Made by a program: the position numbers and the translations under genes. From positions 547,838-611,837 of the forward strand of contig CAVXXI010000001.1 in the NCBI GenBank assembly GCA_963765725.1: a stretch of 64,000 bases of DNA, in the 5' to 3' direction. The DNA comes from an uncultured Actinomycetota bacterium. GTDB lineage: Bacteria > Actinomycetota > Actinomycetes > Propionibacteriales > Nocardioidaceae. Positions within the stretch are counted from its first letter, which is position 1. Every line of letters starts with the position of its first letter. Positions 3,791 to 62,435 of this stretch are shown here, one piece after another. The notes beneath the pieces were generated by a model, which did not search any database, was not told the origin of the DNA, and saw only the letters and a list, made by a program, of their open reading frames with translations.

Positions 3791-3842
3791 ACGTCGAGTA
3801 TGAGCCCGCCACCGCTCCCGGAGAAGCCCGTGCCCGTCCGGC

Positions 3843-3975
3843 CGAGTGGGCACATATGTGGGCTCGAGTGGGCGGCGATGTCGGCTCGAGTGGGCGCAGA
3901 TGTCGGCGTCGAGTGGGCGCAGATGTCGGCTCGACCGGTCACATATGTCGGGTCGAGCGGGCGCATATGTCGGGT
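3843..3975 (+). repeat. 22-bp tandem repeat array, 6 units (family consensus about CGAGYGGGCGSNNATGTCGGNT)
   Basis: Units start at 3843, 3865, 3887, 3910, 3932 and 3954 and are head-to-tail with no spacers. The array is intergenic, between the kinase start and the SMP-30 gene stop. Confidence 0.9.
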
Positions 3976-3993
3976 GGAGGAAGCCGGTGTGGC

Positions 3994-10098: not shown

Positions 10099-10252
10099 CC
10101 CCTAGCGTTGTGCCCGCTCGACGCAGCATTTGTGCCCGCTCGACGCAGCATTTGCGCCCGCTCGGCCGAGCATTCGCGCCCGCTCGGCCGAGCATTTGTG
10201 CCCGCTCGAGCCAGCATTTGTGCCCGCTCGGCCGACATTTCCGCCCGGTTGG
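10099..10252 (-). repeat. 22-bp tandem repeat array, 7 units, opposite orientation (...CATTTGYGCCCGCTCG)
   Basis: Units end in CTCG at 10120, 10142, 10164, 10186, 10208 and 10230, followed by a degenerate last unit. The array is intergenic, between the tad locus and paaA. Confidence 0.9.
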
Positions 10253-13995: not shown

Positions 13996-14064
13996 GGAGC
14001 GCCAGCCGGGCCCTGACGCTCGACGACCGCCTGGCCGTTACGTGTCGGCGGGCGGTTCCTGTCG

Positions 14065-22266: not shown

Positions 22267-22279
22267 AAGGGATTCCTCC

Positions 22280-23899
22280 GTGGTAGACCAAGCGGCACCG
22301 AGCGCACCTGCCGAGCGTGGTGGCAGAGCGCGCCGCCGTTCCCTGGCGTACCGACGGGCCGACCGGGACCCGTCGTACCCGCCCGACCACGTGCTCGCCG
22401 AAGTCGACGGGCGTGTGCTCGACCCCGGTACGGCACTGACGGTCGACGGGATCGTCCCCCGCTCCACCGTGTATGTAGGCCCCCGGCTGGTGATCTCCGC
22501 GGATCGGGACCGCGACGAGGTCCTGGGGCTGCTGCGCGACGCCGCGAGGCCGCTCGGATGGAGGATCGACCTCGACCGCTCCTACCCGGAGTCCCGCGTG
22601 CAGGGCCGCACCACCGGTGGCCGGGCGTTGGGTCTGTCACGCTGCATCATCCGGGTCGAGTCGTCGGGTGCCGCCCTCGCACCCGACGGCTGGGTGCTGC
22701 TGCAGCAGGCCCGGGGGGCGCACGGCAAGTCGGCCCTCCGGGGGGTCGGGCTCGACCACGTCCTGTTCGTGGCGCCGCGGGCGAAGCGACCGTTCCACGA
22801 GTCCAACCCCGTGCCCAGCTCGACGGAGTTCCTGGGCGTCCCCGTCGACTCGTACGGGACGCCTGGCTACGGCGGACGACAACCGGTCGCGTACGTCGGT
22901 CCGCCACCTCACCGCCGTCCCGACAGCGATTTCGTGGCGCGGCGCAGGCCCATCGTCGCCATCCTCGACACGGGGTGCGGTGAGCACGAGTGGCTGGACG
23001 ACATCGTCGACACCTCCGTCGGGCTCAAGGTCGGCGACACCACCCTCGACATCGGCTACACCGACGCGGCGACCGACCCAGAGGTGGGTGGGGACTACGT
23101 CGGCCCACTCGACGGCGGCATCGACGAGCTGGCAGGTCACGGCACTTTCATCGCCGGCCTGGTCCACCAGGCCTGCCCGGACGCCGACATCGTCGCGTGG
23201 CGCGCGGTGAACTCCAGTGGACCGATCGTCGAGTCCGACTGGACCGACGCTCTCGCCCGGATCGTCGAGCTGGTCCGACGGCACGCCGAGGGCGAGCCCG
23301 ACGGGATGCCGGTCGATGTGCTCAACCTCTCGAGCGGCTACTACCACGAGACGCCGGGCGACGAGGAGCTGTACGACCCGACCATCCGGAGCCTGCTCGA
23401 GACGCTCGGGCGCTGCGGCACGGTCGTGGTGTGCTCCGCGGGCAACGACGCGACCGCCCGCCCGCTCTACCCCGCCGCCTTCGCGCCGTGGGACGACGCG
23501 CCGGCCGGTCCACCCGCCGATGCGCTCCCGGTCCTGTCCGTGGGCGCCTACAACCCGAACGCAACGGTCGCCCTCTTCAGCAATACCGGACCCTGGGTGC
23601 GGTGTTACGAGCCGGGTGCGGCGGTGCTGAGCACGATGCCGAAGTTCCAGGGCGGTCTCCAGCCGAGCGCCCGGACGACCGCCTACAAGCTGGTCCGCGA
23701 GTCGGTCGACCTCGACGACTTCACGAGCGGGTTCGCCCTGTGGAGTGGCACGTCGTTCGCCGCTCCGATGCTCGCGGGCAAGGTGGCGGCGGCGCTCGTC
23801 GACTCCATGCCCGCGCCGGGGACGGTCGAGGACCGGGCCGCGGCGGTTGCCCGGGGCTGGTCGGCGGTAGAGGAGATTAGCCCGGTCAGGCCACAATGA
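22280..23899 (+). CDS. Cytoplasmic S8 (subtilisin-like) serine peptidase with an unassigned N-terminal region of about 230 aa
   Basis: Asp AILDTGCG, His AGHGTFIAG, Asn SAGNDA and Ser SGTSFAAPMLAG are all present. There is no signal peptide. Confidence 0.88.
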   Translation: MVDQAAPSAPAERGGRARRRSLAYRRADRDPSYPPDHVLAEVDGRVLDPGTALTVDGIVPRSTVYVGPRLVISADRDRDEVLGLLRDAARPLGWRIDLDRSYPESRVQGRTTGGRALGLSRCIIRVESSGAALAPDGWVLLQQARGAHGKSALRGVGLDHVLFVAPRAKRPFHESNPVPSSTEFLGVPVDSYGTPGYGGRQPVAYVGPPPHRRPDSDFVARRRPIVAILDTGCGEHEWLDDIVDTSVGLKVGDTTLDIGYTDAATDPEVGGDYVGPLDGGIDELAGHGTFIAGLVHQACPDADIVAWRAVNSSGPIVESDWTDALARIVELVRRHAEGEPDGMPVDVLNLSSGYYHETPGDEELYDPTIRSLLETLGRCGTVVVCSAGNDATARPLYPAAFAPWDDAPAGPPADALPVLSVGAYNPNATVALFSNTGPWVRCYEPGAAVLSTMPKFQGGLQPSARTTAYKLVRESVDLDDFTSGFALWSGTSFAAPMLAGKVAAALVDSMPAPGTVEDRAAAVARGWSAVEEISPVRPQ

Positions 23900-23903
23900 G
23901 TAC

Positions 23904-26381
23904 GTGCTGACGGCCGCCGAGCTACATCAGCAGGGCTTGCTCGCGAGCAACGCCGGCAGGCACAAGCGCGCGCGGGGCCTGTTCGACGCGGCGCTGGAGC
24001 GCTGCGACGACGACGAGACCCGGGCGCGGATCCTGTTGAGCCTCGCCCATGTGGCGTCGGAGCTCGGCAGCCGGCAGGAGGGTCTCGAGCTGTGCGACCA
24101 GGCGCTCGCCGTCGGTGCGGTACCGCCCGACCTCGTCGGGCTGGTGCAGTCACAACGCGGGCTCCTGCTCATGCGGGCGGGTGCGGGTGATGAGGCGCTC
24201 GCCGCGTTCGCCGAGGCCCTGCGTCTGTTGCCCGCGGCTCCCCAGGCGCGGTGCCGGGTCCACCTGAATCGCGGGAACGTGTACCTGCAGCGTGGCGACG
24301 CGGTCCGCGCGAGGCGGGACTTCGAGCGGGCGTCGGCCTGCGCCGAGGAGTCCGGTGACCACGTCCAGCAGGCGCGGATCGCTCACAACATCGGCTACAC
24401 GCACCTGCTGACGGGTGACCTGATCATGGCGCTGCGGATGATGGACGCCGCTCGTACGGTGCTGGTTCCGCTGTCGCGGGTGTCCGAGGCGGTCTGCGAG
24501 CAGGACCGGGCGGAGGTCCTCTCGGCGCTCGGTATGGTTTCCGACGCCGAGGCGTCGCTGCAGGCGGCCGCGCGGGCCTTCGGCTCGCGTGGACTGAGCC
24601 AGCAGCAGGGCGAGGCGGAGTTCATCCTCGCCAAGCTGCTGCTGCTCGACCGGCCCGCCGACGCCGCAACGGTCGGTCGCCGGGCACGTCGCCGGTTCGA
24701 GCGGCGCGACAGCGTCGGCTGGGCGTTGCGCGCAGACGCGGTCGCGACGGCGGCGGAGCTCGCCTCCTCGCCGGGCGGCTCGCGGGTGCTGGAACGCGCG
24801 GATCGCCTCGCGACGCAGCTCCGCAGCGCCGGGCTGCGCACCGAGGCGTCGACCGTGCACCTGTACGCCGCGCGGGCCCTCGCGGAGCGCGGCCGCGTCG
24901 ACCCTGCCTGCGCCGAGCTCGAACGGGCGAGGGTGAGCAACCGTTCGGCGCTGACCCTGAGGCTCCTGGCCCGCGAGGTGCAGGCGAGGGTCGCAAGGCG
25001 GAAAGGCAGACGTGCCGACGTCGTACACCATCTGCGGCGCGGCCTGTCCGAGCTGCACGAGTGGCAGTCGTCGTTCGGGAGCCTGGAGCTGCAGAGCTCG
25101 CTCGTCGGTCACGGGCGCGGCTTGGCGGTCCAGGGCCTGGAGTACGCGATCGACGACGGTCGGCCCGCGGTGGTGTTCGAGTGGTCGGAGCGGGCGCGGG
25201 CGCTGGCCGGCCGGGTGCCGCCGGTACGCCCTCCTGCCGACGCGGACGCCGCCGCCGATCTCACCCGACTGCGGCAGCTGCGGCTGATGATCGCGTCGGC
25301 CGGCTCGGACCCGCCGTCCGGTGTGGAGCGCGAGGCCAGCGAGCTCACCGAACGAGTCCGCCGGCGCGCCTGGTACGACTCAGGCTCCGGCCTGGTCACC
25401 GAGCCCTGCGAGCTCGACGCGCTCGTCGCCGAGCTGCAGCGGTCCGACGGCGCGCTGGTGGCGTACCTCGCCGTGAGCTCAGAGCTGCACGCGCTCGTGG
25501 TGGCCGGAGGACGGTCGAGCCTGGTCCCGCTCGGTCCGATGTCGGTGGTGCGCGCACTGCTCGACGGCATGCAGGCCGACCTCGACGTGGCGGCGAGCAG
25601 GCTCCCCGAGGTGTTGAGGGCCGCTGTCCATGCGTCGCTGCTGCGACGGCTTGACCTGCTCTCGTCCGCACTCGTCGCGCCGATCCGCCCGTCGCTGGGT
25701 GAGGGTCCGGTTGCCGTGGTGCCGGCCGGTTCCCTCGCCGCCGTCCCGTGGCCGTTGCTCGACGGGCTCGCGGGCCGGCCGCTCACCGTCCCGCGGTCGG
25801 CCTCGTCCTGGTTGAGCGCTCGTGCGTCGCGACCCAAGGCGACGACGGCCGGCTTCGTGGCGGGTCCGGGGGTCGCGCGGGCCGAGGAGGAGGTGACGCG
25901 GGCGGCCGCGCAGTGGGCGAGCTCGTGTGTGCTCTCGGGCAGCGGCGCCCTGGCGGTGGTGGTACGCGACCTCGCCGAGACCGTCGACGTCTTCCACGTG
26001 GCGGCGCACGGCCGTCATGCCGCCGAGAACCCGCTTTTCTCCGCCGTCGAGCTCGCCGACGGCCCGCTGTTCGGGTACGACATCGACCGGCTGAAGGCCA
26101 TCCCCGCGACGGTCGTGCTCTCGGCGTGCGAAGTCGGACGGTCGTCGGTGCGGTGGGGGGAGGAGACGCTCGGCATGACCGTCGCCTGGCTGCACGCCGG
26201 GGCGCGGTGCGTCATCGCCTCACCCGCGAGTGTCAACGACGACGTGGCGTGCGAGGTGCTGGCGGCGACCCATGCCCTCCTCGCTGCTGGGGAGGCGCCC
26301 AGCAGCGCGCTGGCGTCCGCGACGCGTGCAGTGGGTTCGCATCCTCCAGCGCCGTTCATCTGCTTCGGCAGCGGCTGGTAG
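23904..26381 (+). CDS. TPR-repeat plus CHAT (caspase-like) domain protease
   Basis: N-terminal TPR-like helical repeats (about 400 aa). C-terminal CHAT domain with His (FHVAAHGRH) and Cys (VVLSACEVG). Only a 4-nt gap separates it from the S8 gene. Confidence 0.88.
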   Translation: MLTAAELHQQGLLASNAGRHKRARGLFDAALERCDDDETRARILLSLAHVASELGSRQEGLELCDQALAVGAVPPDLVGLVQSQRGLLLMRAGAGDEALAAFAEALRLLPAAPQARCRVHLNRGNVYLQRGDAVRARRDFERASACAEESGDHVQQARIAHNIGYTHLLTGDLIMALRMMDAARTVLVPLSRVSEAVCEQDRAEVLSALGMVSDAEASLQAAARAFGSRGLSQQQGEAEFILAKLLLLDRPADAATVGRRARRRFERRDSVGWALRADAVATAAELASSPGGSRVLERADRLATQLRSAGLRTEASTVHLYAARALAERGRVDPACAELERARVSNRSALTLRLLAREVQARVARRKGRRADVVHHLRRGLSELHEWQSSFGSLELQSSLVGHGRGLAVQGLEYAIDDGRPAVVFEWSERARALAGRVPPVRPPADADAAADLTRLRQLRLMIASAGSDPPSGVEREASELTERVRRRAWYDSGSGLVTEPCELDALVAELQRSDGALVAYLAVSSELHALVVAGGRSSLVPLGPMSVVRALLDGMQADLDVAASRLPEVLRAAVHASLLRRLDLLSSALVAPIRPSLGEGPVAVVPAGSLAAVPWPLLDGLAGRPLTVPRSASSWLSARASRPKATTAGFVAGPGVARAEEEVTRAAAQWASSCVLSGSGALAVVVRDLAETVDVFHVAAHGRHAAENPLFSAVELADGPLFGYDIDRLKAIPATVVLSACEVGRSSVRWGEETLGMTVAWLHAGARCVIASPASVNDDVACEVLAATHALLAAGEAPSSALASATRAVGSHPPAPFICFGSGW

Positions 26382-26384
26382 CGC

Positions 26385-26516
26385 CGAGAGGTCAGAGATG
26401 TCCGGTCGAGCGGGCGCAAATGCTGCGCCGAGCGGGCGGGAATGCTGCGCCGAGCGGGCGCAAATGCTCCGCCGAGGGGGCAGAGATGTCCGGTCGAGCG
26501 GCTGAGGATGTGCGGC
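26385..26516 (+). repeat. 22-bp tandem repeat array, 6 units
   Basis: Units start at 26385, 26407, 26429, 26451, 26473 and 26495. The array begins 4 nt after the CHAT gene stop. Confidence 0.9.
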
Positions 26517-26556
26517 TGAGCAGCCGGCTACGTCGCGGGCTCCACCGAAGACAGGG

Positions 26557-26688
26557 TCAGCGGGTGATCTGGGACATGTCCGCGACCACGTGACAGCGGT
26601 TGTTGCAGTCGGCGGATGGCCGGTGGCAGTGCACGATGATCCCCTTCGGCACCACAGCGGGCCAACATTCGTCGATCGTCGTGGCCAT
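26557..26688 (-). CDS. Small Cys/His-rich protein (43 aa), unknown function; not in the ORF track
   Basis: AAGGGG lies 5 nt upstream of ATG 26688. Hand translation: MATTIDECWPAVVPKGIIVHCHRPSADCNNRCHVVADMSQITR. By my hand count, about 38 of 43 codons end in G or C. Confidence 0.5.
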   Translation of the reverse strand: MATTIDECWPAVVPKGIIVHCHRPSADCNNRCHVVADMSQITR

Positions 26689-28104: not shown

Positions 28105-30615
28105 ATGGCGACCCGTACGTCCTCCTCGTCACGGTCGCGCAGCGCCAGCGGCAGCTCTCGATCCGGCTCGCGGGGCAGCTCCGCGAAGCGGTCCTCGAGC
28201 GCGCGGAGACGTCCGTCGGGCAGTTCGCGAGCCCGCAGTGCCAGCGCTCGGCGCACCGGGCCGGGTCCGGTCGTCCGCTTCATCGGCGGGATCGGACGGG
28301 CACTCCGCGCGATCTGGCTGGCCGTGGCGCACCTGCTCGGCGCGGTGGTGCGGCGGGTAGGGACGGTTGCCCGCGACCTCGACCCGGAGCATCGCCGCGA
28401 CGGGCTCGGCCTGGCGTTCCTCGGCCTCGCCATCGTGATCGCCGCCGCGGTCTGGTGGCAGCTCCCGGGCGGTGTCGGTGACGGCATCCGTACGGTGGTC
28501 GAGGGGTCGGTCGGGATCGCGGCGTACGCCGTACCGATCCTGCTCGTCGGGGCTGCCTGGCGGACGATGCGCAAGCCGGAGCTCAATGGCCCGGCCGGTC
28601 GTCCGGTCGTCGGCTGGACCGCGATCGGTCTCGGAGTGCTCGGCCTCATCCACATCTCCCACGGCCTCCCGCGGCCTGGCGGCGGGCAGGACGCGATGCG
28701 GGCGGCCGGGGGAGCGGTCGGCTACGTCGGCTCGGCGATGATCGCCGACCTGTTCCACAGCACCGTTGTCGCCATCCCGCTCCTGGTGCTGCTGTCGCTC
28801 TTCGGCCTCCTCGTGGTGACCGCGACCCCGGTGTACAAGGTCCCGAGCCGGCTTGCTGCGCTGCGTGACAAACTGCTGGGCCGTACGGCGTCGCAGGCCG
28901 GTGAGGCCACCGGTACCCTCGACTCGCCGCCACCGTTGGAGCCCCTCAACCGCGGGAGGCGCAGGCGCCGGGTCGGTGCCGCAACGGACCTCGGACCGCC
29001 CGACGAGGCCACCGACGCCGACGTGCTCGAGGGCCGGGAGTTCGCGTCGCGGCACACCGGGACGGAGTCGACCGTCGAGGACGGCCCGGGCGAGGCGCCG
29101 CCGCACACCCCACTGCCCCAGCGCGTGGAGCAGCTGAGCCTGTCCGGGGACATTTCGTACAGCCTGCCCGGCAACGAGGTGCTCAAGCCGGGCAGTGCCC
29201 ACAAGGCTCGTTCGACGGCGTCCGACGCGATCGTCGACCGGCTGACCGAGGTGCTCGACCAGTTCGGGATCGACGCCCAGATCACGGGCTACACGCGCGG
29301 GCCGACCGTCACCCGGTACGAGGTCGAGCTCGGGCCCGCGGTGAAGGTCGAGAAGGTGACCGCGCTGAGCCGCAACATCTCGTACGCCGTCGCCAGCGCC
29401 GACGTCCGCATCCTGTCCCCGATACCGGGGAAGTCGGCGATCGGGGTGGAGATCCCCAACATCGACGCCGAGATCGTGTCCCTGGGTGACGTGCTGCGCT
29501 CGGGGTCCGCCCGCAACTCACACCACCCGATGGTGGTCGCGCTGGGGAAGGACGTGGAGGGGGGTTTCGTCGTCGCCAACCTCGCCCGGATGCCGCATTT
29601 GCTCGTCGCCGGTGCCACCGGCTCGGGCAAGTCGAGCTTCATCAACTCGATGGTGTGCTCACTGCTCATGCGGTCGACCCCCGACGACGTGCGGATGATC
29701 ATGGTCGATCCGAAGCGCGTCGAGCTCACGGCCTACGAGGGGATCCCGCACCTCATCACCCCGATCATCACGAGCCCCAAGAAGGCCGCCGAGGCACTGC
29801 AGTGGGTGGTCCGCGAGATGGACCAGCGCTACGACGACCTGGCGCACTTCGGCTTCCGCCACATCGACGACTTCAACCGGGCGGTGCGCGCGGGAGCGGT
29901 CACGCCGCCGCCGGGCAGCGAGCGCGTACTCACGGCGTACCCGTACCTCGTCATCGTCGTCGACGAGCTCGCAGATCTCATGATGGTCGCACCCCGCGAC
30001 GTCGAGGACTCCGTCGTCCGCATCACCCAGCTCGCGCGGGCCGCCGGCATCCATCTGGTGCTCGCGACGCAGCGGCCGTCGGTCGACGTCGTCACCGGGC
30101 TGATCAAGGCGAACGTCCCGAGCCGGCTCGCGTTCGCCACGTCGTCCCTGGCCGACAGCCGGGTCATCCTCGACCAGCCGGGTGCGGAGAAGCTCGTCGG
30201 CAAGGGCGACGCCCTCTTCCTGCCCATGGGCGCGAGCAAGCCGGCCCGTGTACAGGGCGCGTGGGTGACCGAGGAGGAGATCAGAAAGGTCGTCGCCCAC
30301 TGCAAGAAGCAGCTCCAGCCGACGTACCGCGACGACGTCACGGTCCCGCAGCAGGCCAAGCGGGAGATCGACGAGGACATCGGCGGTGACCTCGACCTGG
30401 TTTGCCAGGCGGTAGAGCTGGTGGTTTCCACCCAGTTCGGCTCGACGTCGATGCTCCAGCGCAAGCTCAGGGTCGGCTTCGCCAAGGCCGGCCGCCTCAT
30501 GGACATCCTCGAGAGCCGGGGGATCGTCGGCCCATCCGAGGGCTCGAAGGCCCGCGATGTGCTCATCAAGCCCGACGACCTCGATGACGTGATCGCAACA
30601 CTGCAAGGGGAATGA
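28105..30615 (+). CDS. ftsK: DNA translocase FtsK
   Basis: N-terminal TM segments, a linker, a motor domain with Walker A GATGSGKSS and Walker B VIVVDELADL, and a C-terminal gamma winged-helix domain. Confidence 0.95.
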   Translation: MATRTSSSSRSRSASGSSRSGSRGSSAKRSSSARRRPSGSSRARSASARRTGPGPVVRFIGGIGRALRAIWLAVAHLLGAVVRRVGTVARDLDPEHRRDGLGLAFLGLAIVIAAAVWWQLPGGVGDGIRTVVEGSVGIAAYAVPILLVGAAWRTMRKPELNGPAGRPVVGWTAIGLGVLGLIHISHGLPRPGGGQDAMRAAGGAVGYVGSAMIADLFHSTVVAIPLLVLLSLFGLLVVTATPVYKVPSRLAALRDKLLGRTASQAGEATGTLDSPPPLEPLNRGRRRRRVGAATDLGPPDEATDADVLEGREFASRHTGTESTVEDGPGEAPPHTPLPQRVEQLSLSGDISYSLPGNEVLKPGSAHKARSTASDAIVDRLTEVLDQFGIDAQITGYTRGPTVTRYEVELGPAVKVEKVTALSRNISYAVASADVRILSPIPGKSAIGVEIPNIDAEIVSLGDVLRSGSARNSHHPMVVALGKDVEGGFVVANLARMPHLLVAGATGSGKSSFINSMVCSLLMRSTPDDVRMIMVDPKRVELTAYEGIPHLITPIITSPKKAAEALQWVVREMDQRYDDLAHFGFRHIDDFNRAVRAGAVTPPPGSERVLTAYPYLVIVVDELADLMMVAPRDVEDSVVRITQLARAAGIHLVLATQRPSVDVVTGLIKANVPSRLAFATSSLADSRVILDQPGAEKLVGKGDALFLPMGASKPARVQGAWVTEEEIRKVVAHCKKQLQPTYRDDVTVPQQAKREIDEDIGGDLDLVCQAVELVVSTQFGSTSMLQRKLRVGFAKAGRLMDILESRGIVGPSEGSKARDVLIKPDDLDDVIATLQGE

Positions 30616-32522
30616 TGGCCGACTCGCCCGATGTACTGGTCCGCAGGCGCACCTCGCTGCTGGTGGTCCTGCTCGCTGCCTCCACGGGGCTGGCGGCTGG
30701 GTATGTCTGGCGGTTCTCTGCTTCGAGCCGTCTGCTCGACCTGGTCGTAGGACTCGTCCTCGCCGTCATCGCGCTGTGTCACGCGTACGCCTGGGTGGAC
30801 TCGCGTACGCCGCTGTTCGTGGCCGACAGTACGGGGGTACGCATCCGGCTGGGTCGGGACTGGACCGGCATTCCGTGGGACCGGGTCGAGTCGGTCGAGG
30901 TCGAGGCCCGCGGTCGGGTAAAGGACGGCCGGGTGGCGGTGCTGACCGCGGATTCAGGTGCCCTGTTGGCGAAGGCCGGCCGTCGGTCACGGTGGGCGGC
31001 CGCGCTCAACCGGCGGCTGTACGGAGCAGCACTGGTGGCGCCGTACGGGTTGGCGACGACCGAGTCCGTACCGGACATCGCGGCCGCCATGGAGCGGCTC
31101 GCGCGGGGGCGGGCCGCTGTCGTGGTCCTCGGCTCACGGACCGGGTCCGACTCGGCCGAGGACGAGGCGTCGGCGGTTGTACCCATCAGTGCTGACGGCG
31201 ATGTCGGCGACCACGACTTCGACGCGGGTCTGGACTTCGACACGGTCACCAACGACGACGGCGGTGAGGCGTCGGCCGATGAGGAGGTCGCCGAGACTGC
31301 GCCGGCGCTTGTCGACGTCGAAGGGCGGGCGGCCGCTGCGCCGCCCGACCCCACCCCGGCAGTACCCGATCCCCGTCGGGCTCGGGCGCCGCGGCGCAAG
31401 GTGTGGGCGGCGCGCTCGTCGAGGTCGGCGGCCGGTCCGTCGCCGGTGGTGTCCATCCCGCGTATGGCACGGCGCGAGGAGCGCACCCTCGACGCACGGC
31501 CGGCGGCGGCGAGCTTCGGGGCGCTTGCCCTGTCGGAGCCCAGCAACGCCGCGGCTGAGCAACTGCCCGAGATCGAGGAGCTCCGCCGCCGTGTCGAAGG
31601 CGAGGCGGTCATCCCTGAGCAGGCGACGGGAGACAACGACCTGGTGTCGGGCAACGTCTCGCTGATCATCGACGCCACCACCGACTTGTCCGCGCGGGCC
31701 ATGCAGCGCGTCAGGGAGTTCCAGCCCACCCTCCCCGCGCAGAGCACCCCGACCGATGGGGACCAGGCGGGCCAGCCGCCCATGGGTACGGTGATCGGCG
31801 CAGAGCTGGCCCACGCCCGGGAGACCCTCGGGCTGAGTGTGGACGAGCTCGCCGACCGTACGAGGATCCGGCCGTCGGTCATCGAGTCGATCGAGCGCGA
31901 CGACTTCTCCCCGTGTGGTGGGGACTTCTACGCCAAGGGGCATCTGCGGATGCTCTGCCGCGTGCTGGGCGTCGAGGCGGCCCCTCTCCTCGGTGCCTAC
32001 GACGCGAGCTTCGCCACCACCCCCATCAAGGCGCGGGACGTGTTCGAGGCCGAGCTGTCGAGCGGCTCGTCCGGACTCGTCCGTGGTGGCGCCTCGGGCG
32101 CGAATTGGGGCGTGCTTGTCGCCGTGGTCGTCGTCCTGCTGGTGACCTGGGGTGCTGCCCGGGTGTTCTCCGGCCCTGGGGACCAGTCGCAGACGAACGC
32201 GGCGGCAACGGGGAGTCGGGGGGCCGTGACGCCGAAGGTTGCGTCACCGCCCGTCGTGCCGCCGGAGACACACGTCGAGGTGACTGTCTCGGGTGGCCAC
32301 TCTCGGGTTGTCGTACGCGACGGGTCGATGCACGTGCTTTTCAGCCGCGTGCTGACGGACGGCACGGTACGACACTTCCACGGCTCGGGACCGTTGCGGA
32401 TACATGCCGCCGACGCGGGAGTCGTCTCGCTCAGCGTGTACGGCCGAAGCCTCGGCGTCCTCGGTCCCGCCGGATCGCCGGCACACCGCATCATCCCGGC
32501 GCCTCACGCACACACGCGCTGA
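30612..32522 (+). CDS. Membrane protein with a RodZ-like HTH (XRE-type) and a DUF4115-like C-terminal domain, with a long acidic/Pro-rich linker
   Basis: ATGA overlap with ftsK. It has N-terminal TM helices and a PH-like segment. The HTH is GAELAHARETLGLSVDELADRTRIRPSVIESIERDDF, followed by a TM helix and then a beta-rich C-terminus. Confidence 0.7.
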   Translation: MMADSPDVLVRRRTSLLVVLLAASTGLAAGYVWRFSASSRLLDLVVGLVLAVIALCHAYAWVDSRTPLFVADSTGVRIRLGRDWTGIPWDRVESVEVEARGRVKDGRVAVLTADSGALLAKAGRRSRWAAALNRRLYGAALVAPYGLATTESVPDIAAAMERLARGRAAVVVLGSRTGSDSAEDEASAVVPISADGDVGDHDFDAGLDFDTVTNDDGGEASADEEVAETAPALVDVEGRAAAAPPDPTPAVPDPRRARAPRRKVWAARSSRSAAGPSPVVSIPRMARREERTLDARPAAASFGALALSEPSNAAAEQLPEIEELRRRVEGEAVIPEQATGDNDLVSGNVSLIIDATTDLSARAMQRVREFQPTLPAQSTPTDGDQAGQPPMGTVIGAELAHARETLGLSVDELADRTRIRPSVIESIERDDFSPCGGDFYAKGHLRMLCRVLGVEAAPLLGAYDASFATTPIKARDVFEAELSSGSSGLVRGGASGANWGVLVAVVVVLLVTWGAARVFSGPGDQSQTNAAATGSRGAVTPKVASPPVVPPETHVEVTVSGGHSRVVVRDGSMHVLFSRVLTDGTVRHFHGSGPLRIHAADAGVVSLSVYGRSLGVLGPAGSPAHRIIPAPHAHTR

Positions 32523-32590: not shown

Positions 32591-32892
32591 CGAGTGGGTA
32601 GAAATGCATGCTCGAGTGGGTAGCTCTGTCCCCCTTCGACTGGGCGCAAATGTCGCTTCGAGCGGGCGCATATGTCGCGTCGACTGGGCGCGTATGCACC
32701 TTCGAGTGGGCGCGTATGCATCGTCGAGTGGGCGGATATGTGTCTCGCGTGCATGGTGTGGTCCGTTCGCTGCGCCGGCTGACGCCAACATCTGCGCCTG
32801 TTCGAGCGAGCATTTGCGCCCGCTCGACCAGACATTTGCGCCCGCTCGACCAGACGTTTGCGCCCGCTCGACCAGACATTTGCGCCCGCTCG
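32591..32892. repeat. Composite inverted array of the 22-bp repeat: 7 forward units (32591-32746), a 36-nt spacer, and 5 reverse units (32783-32892)
   Basis: Units were read directly. The forward type is CGAGTGGGCGCGTATGCATCGT and the reverse type is ACCAGACATTTGCGCCCGCTCG. Confidence 0.9.
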
Positions 32893-32972
32893 ACGGGGAA
32901 TGTGGGGGGCGATCGTGGGTACGTCGCAGGGGCTGCCCCGACGGGGGCCACGACTCGGGAGAGGACACTGCC

Positions 32973-33791
32973 TTGAGCACGACATCGGACACCATCGACA
33001 CGGCCGTTCGGCCACTGGCTGTCGTCACCGGAGCCTCGAGCGGGATCGGGCGGGAGCTCGCTCGGCAGTTCGCAGACAACGGCTTCGATCTGGTCTTGGC
33101 GGCAGAGGACGAGGAGCTGGCGCAGGTTGCCGTCGACCTCGAGCGGGCCGGGGCCGAGGTACGGGCCGAGCAGGTCGACCTCGCCACCCGTGAGGGCGTC
33201 GAACGTCTCGCTGCTGCGATCGCCGCGACCGACCGCCCGGTGGCTGCCGCGGCGCTCAACGCAGGCGTCGGTGTGTCGGGGCGCTTCGACGAGATCGATC
33301 TGGCCGACGACCTCCGGCTGATGGAGCTCAACGTCGTGTCGACGGTTCACCTGGCCAAGCGGCTGGTTCCGGCCATGGTGCAGCGCGGCGAGGGACGGCT
33401 CCTCTTCACCGCGTCGGTGGCGGCGACCATGCCCGGCCCGTACTACGCGACGTACGCCGCGTCCAAGTCGTTTGTGCACTCGTTCGCCGAGGCCATCCGC
33501 CATGAGCTGAAGGACACCGGTGTCACCGTCACCTCGCTCATGCCAGGCCCGACCGACACGGAGTTCTTCGACCGGGCCGGTATGCAGGACACCAAGGTCG
33601 ACAGCGGCAAGAAGGACGACCCGGCTGATGTCGCCCGGGACGGCTTCGAAGCCCTGATGGCGGGCAAGGACCACGTGGTCGCAGGGTCGGCGATGAACCG
33701 CGCGCAGACCGCCGCCAGCACGATCCTCCCGGACCCGATCAAAGCGCGGGTACACGCTTCGATGACCGAGCCGGGGTCGGGAGACTCGTAA
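32973..33791 (+). CDS. SDR-family oxidoreductase
   Basis: TGASSGIG cofactor motif and YxxxK (YAASK). Start placed at TTG 32973 after GGGAGAGGA. The upstream part of the track ORF crosses the repeat array. Confidence 0.85.
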   Translation: MSTTSDTIDTAVRPLAVVTGASSGIGRELARQFADNGFDLVLAAEDEELAQVAVDLERAGAEVRAEQVDLATREGVERLAAAIAATDRPVAAAALNAGVGVSGRFDEIDLADDLRLMELNVVSTVHLAKRLVPAMVQRGEGRLLFTASVAATMPGPYYATYAASKSFVHSFAEAIRHELKDTGVTVTSLMPGPTDTEFFDRAGMQDTKVDSGKKDDPADVARDGFEALMAGKDHVVAGSAMNRAQTAASTILPDPIKARVHASMTEPGSGDS

Positions 33792-37784: not shown

Positions 37785-37880
37785 CGATCCTCCTCGCGCG
37801 ATCCGCCGCTCGCCGCCGGACGGCCGGCGCAGTCAGCGACGCAACGGTAGAGCGCGCTCGCCGCAGGGCAGCCGACGCGG

Positions 37881-42464
<4,584 letters not shown>

Positions 42465-42470
42465 GCCGCC

Positions 42471-42493
42471 ATCCTGTCCGATGCCACCGACAG
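42471..42493 (-). promoter_or_regulatory. RecA-NDp/PafBC-type promoter-like motif for lhr: CTGTCGGTG-N8-CAGGAT, 6 nt before the ATG
   Basis: The minus strand reads CTGTCGGTG GCATCGGA CAGGAT GGCGGC ATG. The -10 first base deviates from TAnnnT. The geometry implies a leaderless mRNA. Confidence 0.45.
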
Positions 42494-42521
42494 TTTCACG
42501 GCCCGGGAGCGCGCACAGCCT

Positions 42522-42544
42522 CTGTCGGCGGCGCTGGCTAGATT
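42522..42544 (+). promoter_or_regulatory. RecA-NDp/PafBC-type promoter-like motif: CTGTCGGCG-N8-TAGATT, 6 nt before GTG 42551
   Basis: Read directly on the plus strand. It mirrors the lhr motif 29 nt away on the other strand. Confidence 0.45.
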
Positions 42545-42550
42545 CTTCCC

Positions 42551-43531
42551 GTGCCCCGAGAGTCCGCCGCCGACCAGATCTCCTCTTCGCCCGCCCGGTC
42601 ACTATCCGCGTCGCCGATGGTGTCGGCACGAGGGCTGCGCAAGTCCTACGGCTCCTTCGAGGCCGTGAAGGGCATCGACGTGGAGGTGTACAGGGGTGAG
42701 GCGTTCGGCTTCCTCGGGCCCAATGGTGCCGGGAAGTCGTCCACGATGCGGATGATCGCGGCCGTCTCACCGGTCTCGGGCGGCTCGCTGCGGATCCTCG
42801 ACATGGACCCCGTGACATCCGGGTCCAGCATCAGGGCACGGATCGGGGTGTGTCCGCAGGAGAACAACCTCGACATCGAGCTGAGCGTCGCCGAGAACCT
42901 CATGGTGTACGGCCGTTTCTTCGGGCTGTCACGGGCGCAGGCTCGGGCGCGCGCCGACGAGCTGCTGGCGTTCGTACAGCTCACGGACCGCGCGGGGGCC
43001 AAGGTGGAGGCGCTCTCTGGCGGGATGAAGCGGCGGCTGACGATCGCCCGCTCGCTCGTCAACTCGCCCGACCTGCTCCTGCTCGACGAGCCCACCACCG
43101 GTCTGGACCCGCAGGCTCGGCACCAGCTCTGGGATCGCCTCTTCCGGCTCAAGCAGGAGGGCGTCACGCTCGTTCTCACGACCCACTACATGGACGAGGC
43201 CGAGCAGCTCTGCGACCGGCTCGTCGTGATGGACAAGGGCCTGATCGTGGCCGCGGGCTCGCCGTCGGAGCTCATCGCCGAGCACGCCACCCGCGAGGTC
43301 GTCGAGCTGCGTTTCCCGGTCGGCGCGCACGACGCCATGGCGGCGCCCGTCGCGGGCCTCGCGCAGCGGGTCGAGGTCCTGCCCGACCGACTGCTGCTGT
43401 ACACCGACGACGGCGACGCGACGGTGAACGCCCTGCACGCGCAGGGCGTCACACCGCTGTCCACGCTCGTACGCCGAGCGACGCTGGAGGATGTCTTCCT
43501 GCGGCTGACCGGACGGACGCTGGTCGACTGA
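42551..43531 (+). CDS. ABC transporter ATP-binding protein (DrrA/NodI-like, ABC-2 exporter)
   Basis: Walker A GPNGAGKSS, signature LSGGMKRRL and Walker B LLLDEPT. Start at GTG 42551 (fits a leaderless promoter) or ATG 42617. Confidence 0.9.
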   Translation: MPRESAADQISSSPARSLSASPMVSARGLRKSYGSFEAVKGIDVEVYRGEAFGFLGPNGAGKSSTMRMIAAVSPVSGGSLRILDMDPVTSGSSIRARIGVCPQENNLDIELSVAENLMVYGRFFGLSRAQARARADELLAFVQLTDRAGAKVEALSGGMKRRLTIARSLVNSPDLLLLDEPTTGLDPQARHQLWDRLFRLKQEGVTLVLTTHYMDEAEQLCDRLVVMDKGLIVAAGSPSELIAEHATREVVELRFPVGAHDAMAAPVAGLAQRVEVLPDRLLLYTDDGDATVNALHAQGVTPLSTLVRRATLEDVFLRLTGRTLVD

Positions 43532-45125: not shown

Positions 45126-45926
45126 ATGGCGTTGCGGGAACGTGCCGAAATCGGTGTGATCGGCGGGTCCGGGCTCTACGAGTTCCTCGACGCGCCCGAG
45201 CTCGTCGACGTCACCACGCCGTACGGGCCACCGTCGGCGCCGGTCGCGGTCGGCGAGGTGGCGGGACGCGCCGTCGCGTTCCTTCCGCGCCACGGGGTCC
45301 GGCACGAGTACCCGCCTCATCGAGTCAACTATCGCGCCAACCTGTGGGCGCTGCGCTCCGTGGGCGTCCGTCGCGTTCTGGCGCCGTGCGCCGTCGGGAG
45401 CCTGCAGCCGCAGCTCTGCCCGGGCGCGCTGGTGGTGCCGGACCAGCTCGTCGACCGCACCAGCGGGCGCGTCCAGACGTACATGGACAAGGGCGCGGCG
45501 CATGTCGGGTTCGCCGACCCCTACTGTCCGACGTTGCGGTCGTTTCTGGTCCGCGGCGACGCCGACGTCGTCGACGGAGCCACGATGGTCGTGGTCGAGG
45601 GTCCTCGGTTCTCGACCAGGGCGGAGTCCCAGTGGTACGCGGCGCAGGGCTGGTCGCTGGTGAACATGACGGGTCATCCCGAAGCTGTCCTCGCCCGCGA
45701 GCTGGCCATGTGCTACGCCGCCGTCGCCCTGGTCACCGACCGCGACGCCGGGGTGAGCGATGGCGAGGCGGTCGACCAGGCCGCGGTGTTCGCCGAGTTC
45801 GCGCGCAACGTGAGCACGCTGCGCGCCTACCTGATCGGCGTCGTGGCGGCCCTGCCCGCCGGGCGGGAGGGGTGCACCTGCCCCGGCGCCCTCGACGGCC
45901 TCATCGTGCCGTTCGAGCTGCCATGA
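45126..45926 (+). CDS. mtnP: S-methyl-5'-thioadenosine phosphorylase
   Basis: PNP/MTAP family sequence (IGVIGGSGLY...FLPRHG...VNMTGHPEAVLAREL). Confidence 0.88.
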   Translation: MALRERAEIGVIGGSGLYEFLDAPELVDVTTPYGPPSAPVAVGEVAGRAVAFLPRHGVRHEYPPHRVNYRANLWALRSVGVRRVLAPCAVGSLQPQLCPGALVVPDQLVDRTSGRVQTYMDKGAAHVGFADPYCPTLRSFLVRGDADVVDGATMVVVEGPRFSTRAESQWYAAQGWSLVNMTGHPEAVLARELAMCYAAVALVTDRDAGVSDGEAVDQAAVFAEFARNVSTLRAYLIGVVAALPAGREGCTCPGALDGLIVPFELP

Positions 45927-46049
45927 AGGTCGTGATCTGGGGCAGGTCCTCCTGGCTGCCCGTTGTCGACCGAGCCTGACGGGCTTCCGGGGTGGTCGTC
46001 CACGTAGGCTTGGAGCTCTCGACGGCACGAGCACGCAGCGAGGGCGACG

Positions 46050-46244
46050 GTGCGACACACGGAATTCTGGACCCGGATGAACGCGGCCCTGGGCCCCGCC
46101 TACGCCACGACGTGGGCCAGGGAGCAGGTCCTGGCAGGGCTCGACGAGATGACGGTGCAGCAGGCCCTCGAGGCCGGGTGGGACGCCAAGACCGTGTGGC
46201 GTGTCGTCTGGCGGGCGCTCGAGCTGCCGCCCCGCGACCGCTGA
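46050..46244 (+). CDS. DUF3046-family small protein (conserved upstream neighbour of recA)
   Basis: MRHTEFWTRMNAALGPAYATTWAREQVLAGL... is typical of DUF3046, and it is positioned before recA. Confidence 0.8.
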   Translation: MRHTEFWTRMNAALGPAYATTWAREQVLAGLDEMTVQQALEAGWDAKTVWRVVWRALELPPRDR

Positions 46245-46247
46245 CCT

Positions 46248-46401
46248 CGAGCGGGCGGGAATGTCCGGCCGAGCGGGCGGGAATGTTCGGCCGAGCGGGC
46301 GGGAATGTCGGGTCGAGCGGGCGGGAATGTCGGGTCGAGCGGGCGGGAATGTCGGGTCGAGCGGGCGGGAATGTCGGGTCGAGCGGGCGGGAAGCTGCAC
46401 G
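46248..46401 (+). repeat. 22-bp tandem repeat array, 7 units; the most regular copy of the family (CGAGCGGGCGGGAATGTCGGGT)
   Basis: Units start at 46248, 46270, 46292, 46314, 46336, 46358 and 46380. Four consecutive units are identical. Confidence 0.95.
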
Positions 46402-46417
46402 GCGTGTCGAGGAGGAT

Positions 46418-46433
46418 TCGAACACACGTTCGG
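46418..46433 (+). promoter_or_regulatory. LexA SOS box upstream of recA (TCGAACACACGTTCGG)
   Basis: It matches the mycobacterial/actinobacterial consensus TCGAAC-N4-GTTCGA, with a perfect GAAC-N4-GTTC core. Confidence 0.8.
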
Positions 46434-46500
46434 GATACGGTTTATCCGCAGGAAGCGAGTCGCGACGTTCTTACCCACAGGCAAGCCCGACCATCCGATG

Positions 46501-46523
46501 TTGTCGGTGGTGGCGTCTAGCGT
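46501..46523 (+). promoter_or_regulatory. RecA-NDp/PafBC-type promoter of recA (TTGTCGGTG-N8-TAGCGT)
   Basis: Exact match to the published motif tTGTCRgtg-8nt-TAnnnT, 57 nt upstream of the recA ATG. Confidence 0.75.
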
Positions 46524-46580
46524 CGTGTCACGACAGCACGGACCCGGGTCCACGACCCCTCACACGTTACGGATGGCGCA

Positions 46581-47633
46581 ATGGCTGCAGCAGATCGTTC
46601 CAAAGCCCTCGACAACGCACTCGCGCAGATCGAGCGCTCGCACGGCAAGGGCTCCGTCATGCGACTGGGTGACCAGGGCCGTGCGCCCGTCGAGGTGATC
46701 CCGACAGGGTCCATCGCGCTCGACATCGCGCTCGGCATCGGGGGTCTTCCCCGCGGGCGGGTGGTCGAGGTCTACGGGCCGGAGTCGTCCGGCAAGACCA
46801 CGGTCGCGCTGCACTCCGTCGCCAATGCCCAACGAGCCGGCGGGATCGCGGCGTTCATCGACGCCGAGCACGCGCTCGACCCCGACTACGCACAGCGGCT
46901 GGGAGTCGACACCGACGCCCTGCTCGTCTCCCAGCCCGACAGCGGCGAGCAGGCGCTGGAGATCGCCGACATGCTCATCAGGTCGGGTGCCCTCGACATC
47001 ATCGTCATCGACTCGGTTGCGGCGCTGGTGCCACGCGCGGAGATCGAGGGCGAGATGGGCGACTCGCATGTCGGGCTCCAGGCACGACTGATGAGCCAGG
47101 CGCTGCGCAAGCTCACCGGCGCGTTGAGCAACTCCGGTACGACGATGATCTTCATCAACCAGCTGCGCGAGAAGATCGGCGTCATGTTCGGCTCCCCGGA
47201 GACGACCACGGGTGGTCGCGCGCTCAAGTTCTACTCCTCCGTTCGGCTCGATGTCCGCCGCATCGAAAGCCTCAAGGACGGGACCGACTTCGTCGGGAAC
47301 CGCACCAGAGTGAAGGTGGCGAAGAACAAGTGCGCGCCACCGTTCAAGCAGGCTGAGTTCGACATCATGTACGGGCAGGGGATCAGCCGGGAGGGCGGAC
47401 TGATCGACGTGGGCGTGGAGACCGGGCTCGTACGCAAGGCCGGCGCCTGGTACACGTATGAAGGCGACCAGCTGGGGCAGGGCAAGGAGAACTCGCGCAC
47501 CTTCCTCCGCGACAACCCCGATCTCGCCAACGAGATCGAGAAGCGGATCCTGGAGAAGCTCGGTATCGGTGCGACGCTCGAGACCGACGCTGTCGCCGCC
47601 GCTGGAGCCGGGCCCACTGACATCGACTTCTGA
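46581..47633 (+). CDS. recA: Recombinase RecA (no intein)
   Basis: Walker [10 protein letters not shown] and full-length RecA-typical sequence of 350 aa. Confidence 0.98.
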
Positions 47634-48453: not shown

Positions 48454-49599
48454 ATGCCTGCCGCCCGACCCGCTGAAGCACCAATCGGTGCGGAGCTGAG
48501 TACTGGCGGCCCGATCTTTGCGAAGCCGCTGCCGCCTGAGTGGTTCATCGAGCACGACACGAATGCCGAGATGCGGTGGGAGTCGGCACACGAGCAGCGG
48601 TTCGCGACCGCGAACGGCCGCTTCTTCGTCCGCAACCACACCCGCACGCCGAGGATCGATCCAGCGACGTATCGACTGGAGATCTTCGGCGACGGACTCG
48701 ACGGGGAGCCCACGGCCGACGAGCCGATCACCCTGAGCCTCGACCAACTGCGCGACTTCGCGCCGTACTCACTCAGCTCGTTCCTCGAGTGCACCGGCAA
48801 CGGGCGGGCGCTGTTCGCAATCCAGCAGCAGATGGCTGTTCCCGGCACGCCATGGCTGCTGGGCGGGATCGGCATGGCGACCTGGTCCGGCATCCGCTTG
48901 TCGTCGGTGCTGCGGTGGGCGCACCTGCGATCCGACGCCCTGAGTGTGATGGCCACGGGACTGGACGACCCGTATGTCTACCGGGGCGTCGACTACGGCC
49001 CGGTCCGTCGTCCGCTTCCCGTCCACAAGGCCCTCGACGACTGCATGCTCGTCCTGGAGATGAACGGTGAGCCCCTGCCGCTGGATCACGGCGCTCCCGT
49101 ACGGCTGCTGGTCCCTGGCTGGGTCGGCATCGCCAGCATCAAATGGCTGGGACAGCTCGAGGTGTCGAGCCGGCAGCTGCAGTCACCGTGGAACACCATC
49201 TGGTACCGGATGACGGGCGGCGCCTACCCGAGCGACGCGCCGCCGCTCACCGACGTTCCGGTGCGCAGCACGTTCGAGCTCCCGTGGGGTGCTCGGCTCG
49301 CTGCAGGGTCCCCGGTGACCCTGCGGGGAAGGTCGTGGTCGGGTGCCGCGCCGATCGAGCGGGTGGACGTGAGCCTCGACGGCGGGGCGACCTGGCAGAC
49401 GCCGCAGCTCAGTGGCCCCAACCGCCGGTACTCGTGGGCGCACTGGCAGGTGAGGTGGGTGCCCCCCTCCGTCGGCACGCACGAGCTGCTGGCGCGAGCC
49501 ACCGACAAGCGCGGCCGCACCCAGCCCGACACCGTTCCGTTCAACAACGAGGGGTACCTCTTCTGGGCCGTCGTGCGGCATCCCGTCACGGTGGTCTGA
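48454..49599 (+). CDS. Molybdopterin-dependent oxidoreductase (sulfite oxidase family)
   Basis: Conserved Moco-binding segment (SFLECTGNGR), VRLLVPGWVGIASIKWL, and a C-terminal dimerisation/Ig-like domain. Start placed at ATG 48454; the track ORF opens at 48406. Confidence 0.85.
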   Translation: MPAARPAEAPIGAELSTGGPIFAKPLPPEWFIEHDTNAEMRWESAHEQRFATANGRFFVRNHTRTPRIDPATYRLEIFGDGLDGEPTADEPITLSLDQLRDFAPYSLSSFLECTGNGRALFAIQQQMAVPGTPWLLGGIGMATWSGIRLSSVLRWAHLRSDALSVMATGLDDPYVYRGVDYGPVRRPLPVHKALDDCMLVLEMNGEPLPLDHGAPVRLLVPGWVGIASIKWLGQLEVSSRQLQSPWNTIWYRMTGGAYPSDAPPLTDVPVRSTFELPWGARLAAGSPVTLRGRSWSGAAPIERVDVSLDGGATWQTPQLSGPNRRYSWAHWQVRWVPPSVGTHELLARATDKRGRTQPDTVPFNNEGYLFWAVVRHPVTVV

Positions 49600-49656
49600 G
49601 CGACCGGCTTGCGCTTACCGCCACCTGACATGATGGCGTGCATGCGGGTGAAGGCC

Positions 49657-61693: not shown

Positions 61694-61716
61694 ACGGTAA
61701 ACCTGTGCGCCGACAC
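61694..61716 (-). promoter_or_regulatory. Promoter-like motif for lexA (GTGTCGGCG-N8-TACCGT on the minus strand)
   Basis: The minus strand reads GTGTCGGCG CACAGGTT TACCGT, 2 nt downstream of the lexA SOS box. Confidence 0.45.
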
Positions 61717-62413: not shown

Positions 62414-62435
62414 TGTCGGTGCACCCCGATAGACC
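62414..62435 (+). promoter_or_regulatory. RecA-NDp-like motif upstream of the LysM gene (TGTCGGTG-N8-TAGACC)
   Basis: The upstream element is exact. The -10 lacks the final T. It is 70 nt before ATG 62505. Confidence 0.35.

Follow-up and report, generated by a model that had tools for sequence, protein, structure and literature searches.

The array of 22-bp tandem repeats upstream of recA is probably one locus of a MIRU/REP-like family of interspersed minisatellites, and a passenger at this site. Six arrays of this family are present in the window, i.e., the complete 64-kb stretch of DNA analysed here (G+C content 70%), and more than 70 were found at the loci taken from related genomes. The arrays are confined to intergenic DNA and have a sharp 5′ end, which usually lies 3–15 nt past a co-oriented stop codon and less often just upstream of the core promoter of a divergent gene. 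Unit number and unit sequence turn over fast between close strains. Seen in this way, the recA-proximal array is a passenger that varies between strains and is not to be counted among the elements of the SOS/PafBC control region.

The 22-bp repeat family and its hosts

At the recA locus TRF called a 22-bp array at 46247–46393 with 6.7 copies, 96% matches and the consensus TCGAGCGGGCGGGAATGTCGGG. Read in the 22-nt register, it starts with two slightly divergent units, followed by four identical ones (CGAGCGGGCGGGAATGTCGGGT; units 3–6, 46292–46379), the truncated unit CGAGCGGGCGGGAA and unique sequence. The first base of the array (46248) lies 4 nt past the last base of the DUF3046 stop codon (TGA, 46242–46244), which leaves 3 nt between them, and the repeat similarity ends with the truncated unit. 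The initial annotation had described seven units extending from 46248 to 46401. Its start and its four consecutive identical copies could be confirmed; the seventh unit, however, is only 14 nt long, and the end at 46401 merely corresponds to 7 × 22 nt, the true end being at 46393. The same array, with differing unit numbers, was found in five independent metagenome assemblies and one MAG and is therefore no assembly artefact, which the initial annotation had named as a possible refutation.

Table 1. Positions of the recA-proximal array, of the features flanking it and of the other family arrays in the window.
Feature	Position	Strand	Basis and remarks
Family array, 6 units	3839..3975	+	TRF and sequence
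Family array, ~7 units	10099..10252	-	TRF and sequence
Family array	26382..26516	+	starts directly past the stop of a TPR/CHAT-domain gene (23904-26381)
Family array, left arm of convergent pair	32591..32745	+	TRF and sequence
Family array, right arm of convergent pair	32784..32894	-	TRF and sequence
DUF3046 gene	46050..46244	+	Pfam PF11248, E = 7e-25; stop codon anchors the array 5′ end
recA-proximal 22-bp array	46248..46393	+	TRF and sequence; 6 full units, then a truncated 14-nt unit
CGGCGTGTCG motif	46400..46409	+	comparison of L076, L078, L087-L090 and the window; bounds the array 3′ side
LexA SOS box TCGAACACACGTTCGG (TCGAAC-N4-GTTCGg)	46418..46433	+	sequence; kept in all recA loci examined
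RecA-NDp (PafBC-type) promoter motif TGTCGGTG-N8-TAGCGT	46502..46523	+	motif search
recA	46581..47633	+	Pfam PF00154, E = 1e-141

Related 22-bp arrays were called by TRF at 3839–3973, 10108–10247, 26382–26501, 32634–32741 and 32788–32894. All six arrays of the window have 5–7 units, are intergenic and contain no spacers, which bears out the earlier description of a dispersed family of spacer-less intergenic 22-bp arrays. The loci listed in that description were found again, with one correction: the block 32591–32892 is not a single array and consists of two arrays in inverted orientation, approximately 36 nt apart. The family core CGAGYGGGC-N4-ATG, searched with up to one mismatch, has 34 matches in the window compared to 1.98 ± 1.4 in shuffled sequences, and 30 of the 34 lie inside the six arrays.

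The five arrays outside the recA locus flank unrelated genes. [quoted passage not shown] The array at 10099 points with its 5′ end toward the start of paaA (10347), approximately 95 nt away; for a comparison of this array between strains we looked up the paaA protein and found no exact protein on record. Like the array at recA, the one at 26382 follows a stop codon directly, and the left arm of the convergent pair starts 68 nt past the stop codon of a RodZ-like gene (30612–32522). A short-chain dehydrogenase gene (ends 33791) has its start facing the 5′ end of the right arm. An array orthologous to the one at 26382 is present in the MAG contig L058, which is 91–96% identical to window positions 20997–26680; the window organism is therefore a close relative of the organism represented by this MAG.

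Altogether 408 units from 80 arrays yielded the consensus unit CGAGCGGGC-GCAA-ATG-TCSSGT, and the core of the family is CGAGCGGGCGCAAATG. Positions 1–3, 6–9, 14 and 16 of these units are nearly invariant and positions 10–13 and 17–22 variable, the apparent conservation of the core being inflated since the pattern used to select the loci fixed part of it. Nearly all statistics given here derive from one species-level lineage, namely the window and the MAG BP_366.

The reference genomes were scanned with a pattern, using one genome per species, and the host range given here holds among the matches listed. Most of the matches listed come from the Nocardioidaceae MAG BP_366, a close relative of the window organism in which the family is abundant, and many contigs of this MAG end inside arrays. 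True arrays among the matches listed were also found in three further MAGs, one each from the Propionibacteriales, the Actinomycetota and Intrasporangium; the few listed from other phyla are two-unit chance matches within genes. The family occurs in the Nocardioidaceae and related actinobacteria and is lineage-restricted, and the possibility considered initially, that the repeat is confined to this window or strain, does not apply.

A search against Rfam 15 gave no match in the whole window at the gathering score and none with E ≤ 1 in the region 45900–46650. An array built from the consensus had no BLAST match among PLSDB plasmids or INPHARED phages, to which the low-complexity filter may contribute, and a pattern scan of IMG/VR gave no match; a plasmid or phage origin was rejected on this basis. 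The core sequence is absent from the literature searched by sequence string, and topic searches gave no description of the family, which is apparently undescribed so far. The arrays are abundant and hypervariable and thus suitable as VNTR markers for typing strains of these soil actinobacteria. They also break short-read assemblies and are places where gene callers put spurious ORFs.

The recA locus with and without the array

The RecA of the window has identical counterparts on seven metagenome contigs. Among the contigs reaching upstream, one carries three units (L067) and one nine (L066), and where the contig ends inside the array at least 5–6 are present. A check for VNTR behaviour, proposed in the initial annotation, was thus positive, as contigs that agree 100% in RecA have 3, 7 or 9 units at this locus. 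The unit tails also differ among these contigs, and the recA control region of approximately 190 bp downstream of the array is almost invariant among them.

More distant recA loci were located via DUF3046 homologues. An array between DUF3046 and recA is present in L088/L094 (recA nucleotide identity to the window 87.7%, three units) and in L087/L093 (86.9%, five units of the diverged variant CGACCGGGCAGAAACGTCCCT). No array is found at this site in L089 (86.3%), in L090 (86.1%) and in four loci with lower recA identity (L073, L074, L076 and L078). The array has been kept in three lineages that are approximately 13% apart in recA. The array-free loci L089, L090, L076 and L078 retain the SOS box, the RecA-NDp promoter and the upstream GGCGTGTCG motif, and in L076 and L078 the distance from the DUF3046 stop codon to the SOS box is only about 40 nt.

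At every filled recA site the 5′ junction consists of TGA, three nucleotides and CGAG. On the 3′ side the array halts a few nucleotides short of the GGCGTGTCG motif, which is conserved upstream of the SOS box regardless of whether an array is present. From the constant junctions and the conservation of GGCGTGTCG with or without an array it follows that the array occupies a dispensable stretch, which extends from the stop codon to the first conserved control element. The CGGCGTGTCG motif upstream of the SOS box is kept in relatives with and without arrays, and this comparison assigns it to the putative ancestral recA control region, outside the repeat. The presence, length and sequence of the array are uncoupled from the regulatory elements of recA. 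The main effect of the array at this locus is that DUF3046 is shifted a variable 66–200 bp from the operator.

These data bear on the role in recA control for which the array had initially been considered, as a decoy, by titration or by cooperative binding of PafBC. In such a model, TGTCGG(G/C)T elements phased by two helical turns would titrate or cooperatively recruit PafBC/LexA and thereby modulate the induction of recA. The 22-bp period does correspond geometrically to two helical turns. At recA, TGTC(C/G)GG is indeed present in six of the seven units, and the true RecA-NDp box is located 100 bp downstream. In the family as a whole, however, only 44 of the 408 units (11%) contain TGTCGG, and they do so in the variable tail, where the conservation of the unit is lowest. 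Most frequent among the tails are TGTCCGGT (41 units), TGTCGG[GC]T (38) and TGTCGCGT (31), and the PafBC box TGTCRGTG does not occur in any of the 408 units. The full RecA-NDp pattern (tTGTCRgtg, 8 nt, TAnnnT) has six matches in the window if one mismatch is allowed, compared to 0.5 expected. All six are promoter-like in position, including a divergent pair beside a putative lhr helicase gene, and none of them lies inside an array of the window; the motif upstream of recA is the sole perfect match within the 64 kb. The LexA palindrome TCGAAC-N4-GTTCGA is absent from the unit, which contains only TCGAG, and the true box is located outside the array.

The comparison of relatives points in the same direction. 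Array-free loci keep the SOS box and the RecA-NDp promoter, the units of the array in L087/L093 are completely devoid of TGTCGG, and sister strains and relatives vary in unit tails, unit number and array presence with the recA control region staying the same. In addition, the five other arrays of the window are located beside unrelated genes. The titration model is close to refuted, and we give hardly any credence to a contribution of the arrays to recA induction via PafBC or LexA.

The array at recA also contains the longest run of canonical G4 motifs in the window (46297–46391, coding strand), and only four G4-motif regions are present on the plus strand of the 64 kb. Such a strain-specific run, or an intrinsic curvature resulting from AAAT tracts phased by 22 bp, might alter read-through from DUF3046 or the activity of the SOS promoter. 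The alleles L066, L067, L093 and L094, however, have little or no G4 potential, which is therefore a by-product of one unit variant. A G-quadruplex function was rejected, the run being present only in the window allele. The conserved positions, moreover, are the three 3′-terminal ones closest to the promoter, and we consider an effect of G4 or curvature on either process very improbable.

Polarity and position relative to genes

For the positional analysis all arrays were oriented to read CGAGCGGGC..., and a stop was scored if the stop codon of a coding-looking ORF lay within 30 nt. In 35 of 62 arrays the 5′ end lies not more than 30 nt from a co-oriented stop codon, with a median distance of 11 nt, and 31 of these 35 (31 of all 62) start not more than 15 nt from the stop codon. 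The mirror test, for a convergent stop codon within 30 nt of the 3′ end, was positive in 8 of 60 arrays only (Fisher p = 5e-7). With wider limits the numbers were 36 of 61 at the 5′ end and 11 of 58 at the 3′ end. Stop-codon adjacency holds also in the Propionibacteriales and the Actinomycetota MAG. The stop codons preceding the arrays are TGA (28), TAG (6) and TAA (1), which is roughly the genome usage. A DNA target motif TGAC as the basis of stop adjacency was rejected, since the arrays also follow TAG and TAA near genome usage. The C-rich "leader" consists for the most part of the tail YCCSGT of an incomplete unit.

In a further 13 arrays the 5′ end lies within 120 nt of a divergent gene start, and in the four gene-start arrays that were read a plausible TANNNT −10 element follows approximately 10–20 nt beyond the array end. 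Close array pairs are convergent in 14 cases and divergent in none, and the spacers between convergent arrays (31–463 nt) are unrelated in sequence. About a fifth of the arrays are antisense to both neighbouring genes. The one-ended anchoring at stop codons is the most striking property of the family.

If the arrays are transcribed as part of 3′ UTRs, they might act as RNA elements similar to the REPs of E. coli, with the folded array blocking 3′ exonucleases or hindering translation termination and thereby tuning the upstream gene. The short distance to the stop codon (≤15 nt in 31 of the 35 stop-adjacent arrays) would fit such a role: approximately half of the REPs in E. coli have a stop codon not more than 15 nt away and cause ribosomes to stall (PMC12306157). 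Sense-strand RNA of the window arrays folds better than shuffled sequences (z = −3.7, −1.4, −3.8 and −3.1) and also better than the antisense strand. The folds are, however, inconsistent between arrays, in L093, whose arrays are diverged, folding in the sense direction is no better than that of shuffled sequences (z = 0.09 and 1.99), and the lack of an Rfam match extends even to E ≤ 1; a conserved RNA structure was rejected for these reasons. The best hairpins in the 110 nt past the arrays are not stronger than those in random segments, which also led us to reject the insertion of arrays between a stop codon and its terminator hairpin. Simple terminator and promoter scans found nothing. Together with the arrays that are antisense to both neighbours, these results render a REP-like 3′ UTR function improbable.

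The sense strand is G-rich in the window lineage and balanced or C-rich in L093, and explanations by RNA structure, R-loops or C>G Rho loading are therefore not general. By our own estimate the C>G skew of the antisense strand lies within the expectation for a random 22-mer. Rho loading, or a G-rich sense strand, as the reason for the orientation of the arrays was rejected because the skew is within chance and is reversed or absent in L093.

A single rule would fit all positional data if the arrays acted as polar insulators at gene boundaries. An array would then be a row of protein sites or, in the window lineage, a C-rich antisense Rho loading site, which stops polymerases arriving from its 3′ side and allows those leaving from the 5′ side to pass. 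The gene at the 5′ end would be shielded from antisense transcription if the array is on the stop side and from upstream read-through if it is on the promoter side. The 5′ end faces a gene boundary in approximately 50 of 61 arrays and the 3′ end in 16 of 58. The convergent arrangement of all 14 close pairs, the position of gene-start arrays upstream of plausible −10 elements and the conservation of the core despite rapid turnover agree with this rule, and the 22-bp phasing and the 5–7 units per window array are compatible with cooperative binding. Antisense RNA is also less structured than sense RNA in the window lineage. Several observations argue against insulation: no binding protein was found, arrays are lost without obvious replacement, and at the recA locus polymerases would be let through toward recA, so that there would be no insulation at this locus. 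The Rho version has the additional difficulty of the skew described above, which makes it not general. Polar insulation is a possible explanation that we regard as rather unlikely.

More broadly, the arrays might be a genome-wide and so far unrecognised gene-boundary marking system of the Nocardioidaceae, either as polar barriers that bind a dedicated factor or as rows placed by a new insertion mechanism that senses gene ends. As barriers, the oriented rows would always have the same end next to a stop codon or core promoter, and they would be comparable to the tandem Sal-box/TTF-I terminators of rDNA or to Tus-Ter. We consider this proposal unlikely as well. To our knowledge, no known mechanism explains one-ended stop anchoring, convergent-only pairs and a core conserved through turnover. 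The polarity is an interesting lead and offers a tractable route to the question of how such repeats spread in bacteria, or whether they act as gene insulators.

Array turnover and comparison with known repeat systems

The two ends of the arrays differ in structure. At the 5′ boundary, which is sharp, the phase does not vary, and the partial tail YCCSGT is followed by a full unit; the 3′ boundary is frayed and carries one or two units that are degenerate. CGACC/CGACT is enriched in the first units (21 of 65 compared to 12 of 153 inner units), the "GC" variant of the unit middle is overrepresented toward the 5′ end (p = 3e-4), and degeneracy is greatest in the last units. In the orthologous arrays past the CHAT-domain gene of the window and of L058, the distal degenerate units are common to both and the stop-proximal units have been replaced. 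L093 has a second array, upstream of miaB, which consists of the same variant (CSACCGGGCAGRAAC-GTCCCT) as its recA array; in this relative, the only one sampled at more than one locus, both arrays thus have a lineage-specific unit variant in common. The site upstream of miaB is filled in L093, decayed to two units in L094 and empty in the window. The mode of the array length is 5–6 units, and array length was rejected as evidence for constraint, since short-read assembly and locus selection truncate both tails of the distribution.

The edge, turnover and cross-locus variant data lead to a series of founding, expansion and contraction, homogenisation across loci, decay and loss, and this series points to the life cycle of an interspersed minisatellite. 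An array might be founded when a unit with fixed termini inserts next to a gene boundary and could then grow and shrink via slipped-strand mispairing or unequal recombination. Exchange between loci would homogenise the interior of the arrays, with edge units retaining older variants, and the core may be kept since a sequence-specific factor, either a protein or the copying mechanism, recognises the unit.

Some observations do not fit easily with an interspersed minisatellite. Signatures of mobility such as a transposase or a target-site duplication were not found, and no duplications were evident at the array junctions examined. A purely selfish or neutral element does not by itself explain why the 5′ rather than the 3′ end is located at gene boundaries, nor why the 16-nt core is kept despite array turnover; a host function would fit these two facts equally well. 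The persistence of the recA array across three lineages with approximately 13% recA difference is long for useless DNA. The statistics, furthermore, come almost completely from one species-level lineage and from loci chosen with a pattern that fixes part of the core. We nevertheless favour the interspersed minisatellite as the probable nature of the array at recA.

Among the known systems, MIRU-VNTRs are similar in being actinobacterial, arranged head-to-tail without spacers at many intergenic loci and polymorphic in unit number between strains, and in touching the ends of flanking ORFs and having filled and empty orthologous sites. MIRUs adjoin the ends of flanking ORFs, and both filled and empty orthologous sites exist (Delihas, 2011, PMC3184786; PMC2734929). 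They have units of 40–100 bp, are present at approximately 41–50 loci per genome, contain small ORFs that overlap the flanking genes and have been described with imperfect terminal inverted repeats and 4-nt direct repeats (PMC3184786). The unit studied here, in contrast, is 22 bp long, which is not a multiple of three, and has no sequence similarity to MIRUs; neither an internal inverted repeat nor a target duplication was seen, and the density is much higher, with six arrays in 64 kb. With a 22-bp unit, no small ORFs and a Nocardioidaceae host, the family does not belong to the MIRUs in the strict sense, but it has the general characteristics of an interspersed minisatellite.

REP and BIME elements of enterobacteria and pseudomonads resemble the family as short intergenic copies, present in the hundreds, that are often clustered, non-coding and lineage-specific. 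About half of the REPs are found within 15 nt of the upstream stop codon (PMC12306157), comparable to the 31 of 62 arrays here that have a co-oriented stop codon within this distance of their 5′ end. REPs are imperfect palindromes that form hairpins, BIMEs alternate in orientation and contain linkers, and RAYT transposases mobilise the elements. The units described here differ in being direct repeats without dyad symmetry, with one orientation per array and no conserved hairpin.

The pneumococcal BOX element (boxA-boxB(n)-boxC) is likewise a dispersed intergenic element with a tandem module of variable copy number. Its repeat is 45 nt long, and its termini consist of two distinct conserved modules, boxA and boxC, whereas conserved non-repeat termini were not seen here.

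Iterons of plasmids or phages are direct repeats of approximately 17–22 bp that lie on one helix face and are cooperatively bound by one protein, and the ends of Tn7 carry 22-bp transposase-binding sites in inverted arrays. The arrays of the present family, in contrast, are located at dozens to hundreds of chromosomal loci and have no adjacent replication or transposase gene. Unlike those of iterons, their flanking genes are unrelated chromosomal genes, and PLSDB contains no match. Unlike in Tn7, convergent arrays are separated by non-conserved spacers and differ in unit variant between the two arms; the arms are therefore not the two ends of one element. A composite MITE or Tn7-like element made up of two convergent arrays was rejected because the spacers are unrelated, the arms are not mirror copies and no duplications are evident.

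CRISPR arrays have in common with the family that they are short intergenic direct repeats with a weak polarity, newer-looking units being located at one end. The family fails the defining feature of CRISPR, since its arrays have no spacers; the 22-bp units abut each other, and each genome contains many small arrays. In summary, the family is an additional case within the known class of bacterial interspersed repeats, and its one-ended anchoring to gene boundaries is possibly a new property in this class.

Promoter motifs around recA and elsewhere in the window

The motif CGGCGTGTCG (positions 46400-46409) precedes the recA SOS box by about 10 nt. It is kept in all DUF3046-recA loci examined, across genera and with the array present or absent. 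It probably either belongs to the LexA-controlled promoter or represents a second site of the TGTCG type. A pattern scan for RecA-NDp/PafBC-type promoters (TGTCRGTG-N8-TANNNT, at most one mismatch) returned six motifs in the window, where 0.5 are expected. The genes located at these motifs are candidate members of the PafBC regulon.

RecA-NDp/PafBC-type motifs found in the window by the pattern scan, besides the one at recA (46502-46523)
Position	Strand	Remark
14060-14081	+	
42471-42492	-	member of divergent pair
42523-42544	+	member of divergent pair
61694-61715	-	
62414-62435	+	

The divergent pair lies between a large helicase gene (37881-42818) and a putative ORF at 42551-43531. Length and position make the helicase gene the putative counterpart of the Lhr gene on L093, an array-bearing contig of a relative. 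At the position of the neighbouring ORF, L093 and a second such contig, L094, encode ABC transporters. The 3′ end of the helicase gene carries a 48-bp tandem duplication (37807-37899; 1.9 copies, 86% match, TRF score 144), which is unrelated to the 22-bp family.

Effects of the arrays on assembly and gene calling

Among L001-L064 (contigs of MAG JAWWPH01), L068 (3-155) and L070 (1-135), many of the short-read contigs from MAGs and metagenomes terminate within arrays, and therefore the 22-bp repeats break up assemblies. Spurious ORFs of 45-51 amino acids are annotated within the arrays by gene callers. Since none of the frames of the units is interrupted by a stop codon, long false ORFs also run through arrays, for example at 3146-4012 and 32604-33791. 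A possibly non-coding stretch of approximately 1 kb (2800-3840) precedes the array that starts at 3839; none of its long ORFs has a Pfam match, and its third-position G+C is below that of neighbouring genes.

The longest canonical G-quadruplex motif run of the window (46297-46391, + strand) is due to a GGGCGGG...GGG unit variant. This run was not found in the alleles of L093, L094 and L066, the latter encoding an identical RecA.

Possible relic units and array loss

In L072 (1095-1140), one degenerate unit, TCGAGTGG-CGCAAACG, lies directly 3′ of the stop codon of a DUF3046 homologue (paralogue or orthologue, 84% identity) and is followed by a GC-rich hairpin. The unit may be solitary or a relic. 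A similar relic may be present between the DUF3046 stop codon and the SOS box in L090, a relative without array. Upstream of miaB, the intergenic site that follows on from the neighbouring Mo-co oxidoreductase gene is filled with three units in L093 (13364-13430), decayed to two degenerate units in L094 (8321-8608) and empty in the window (49599-49630). These three states provide a natural series for studying array loss.
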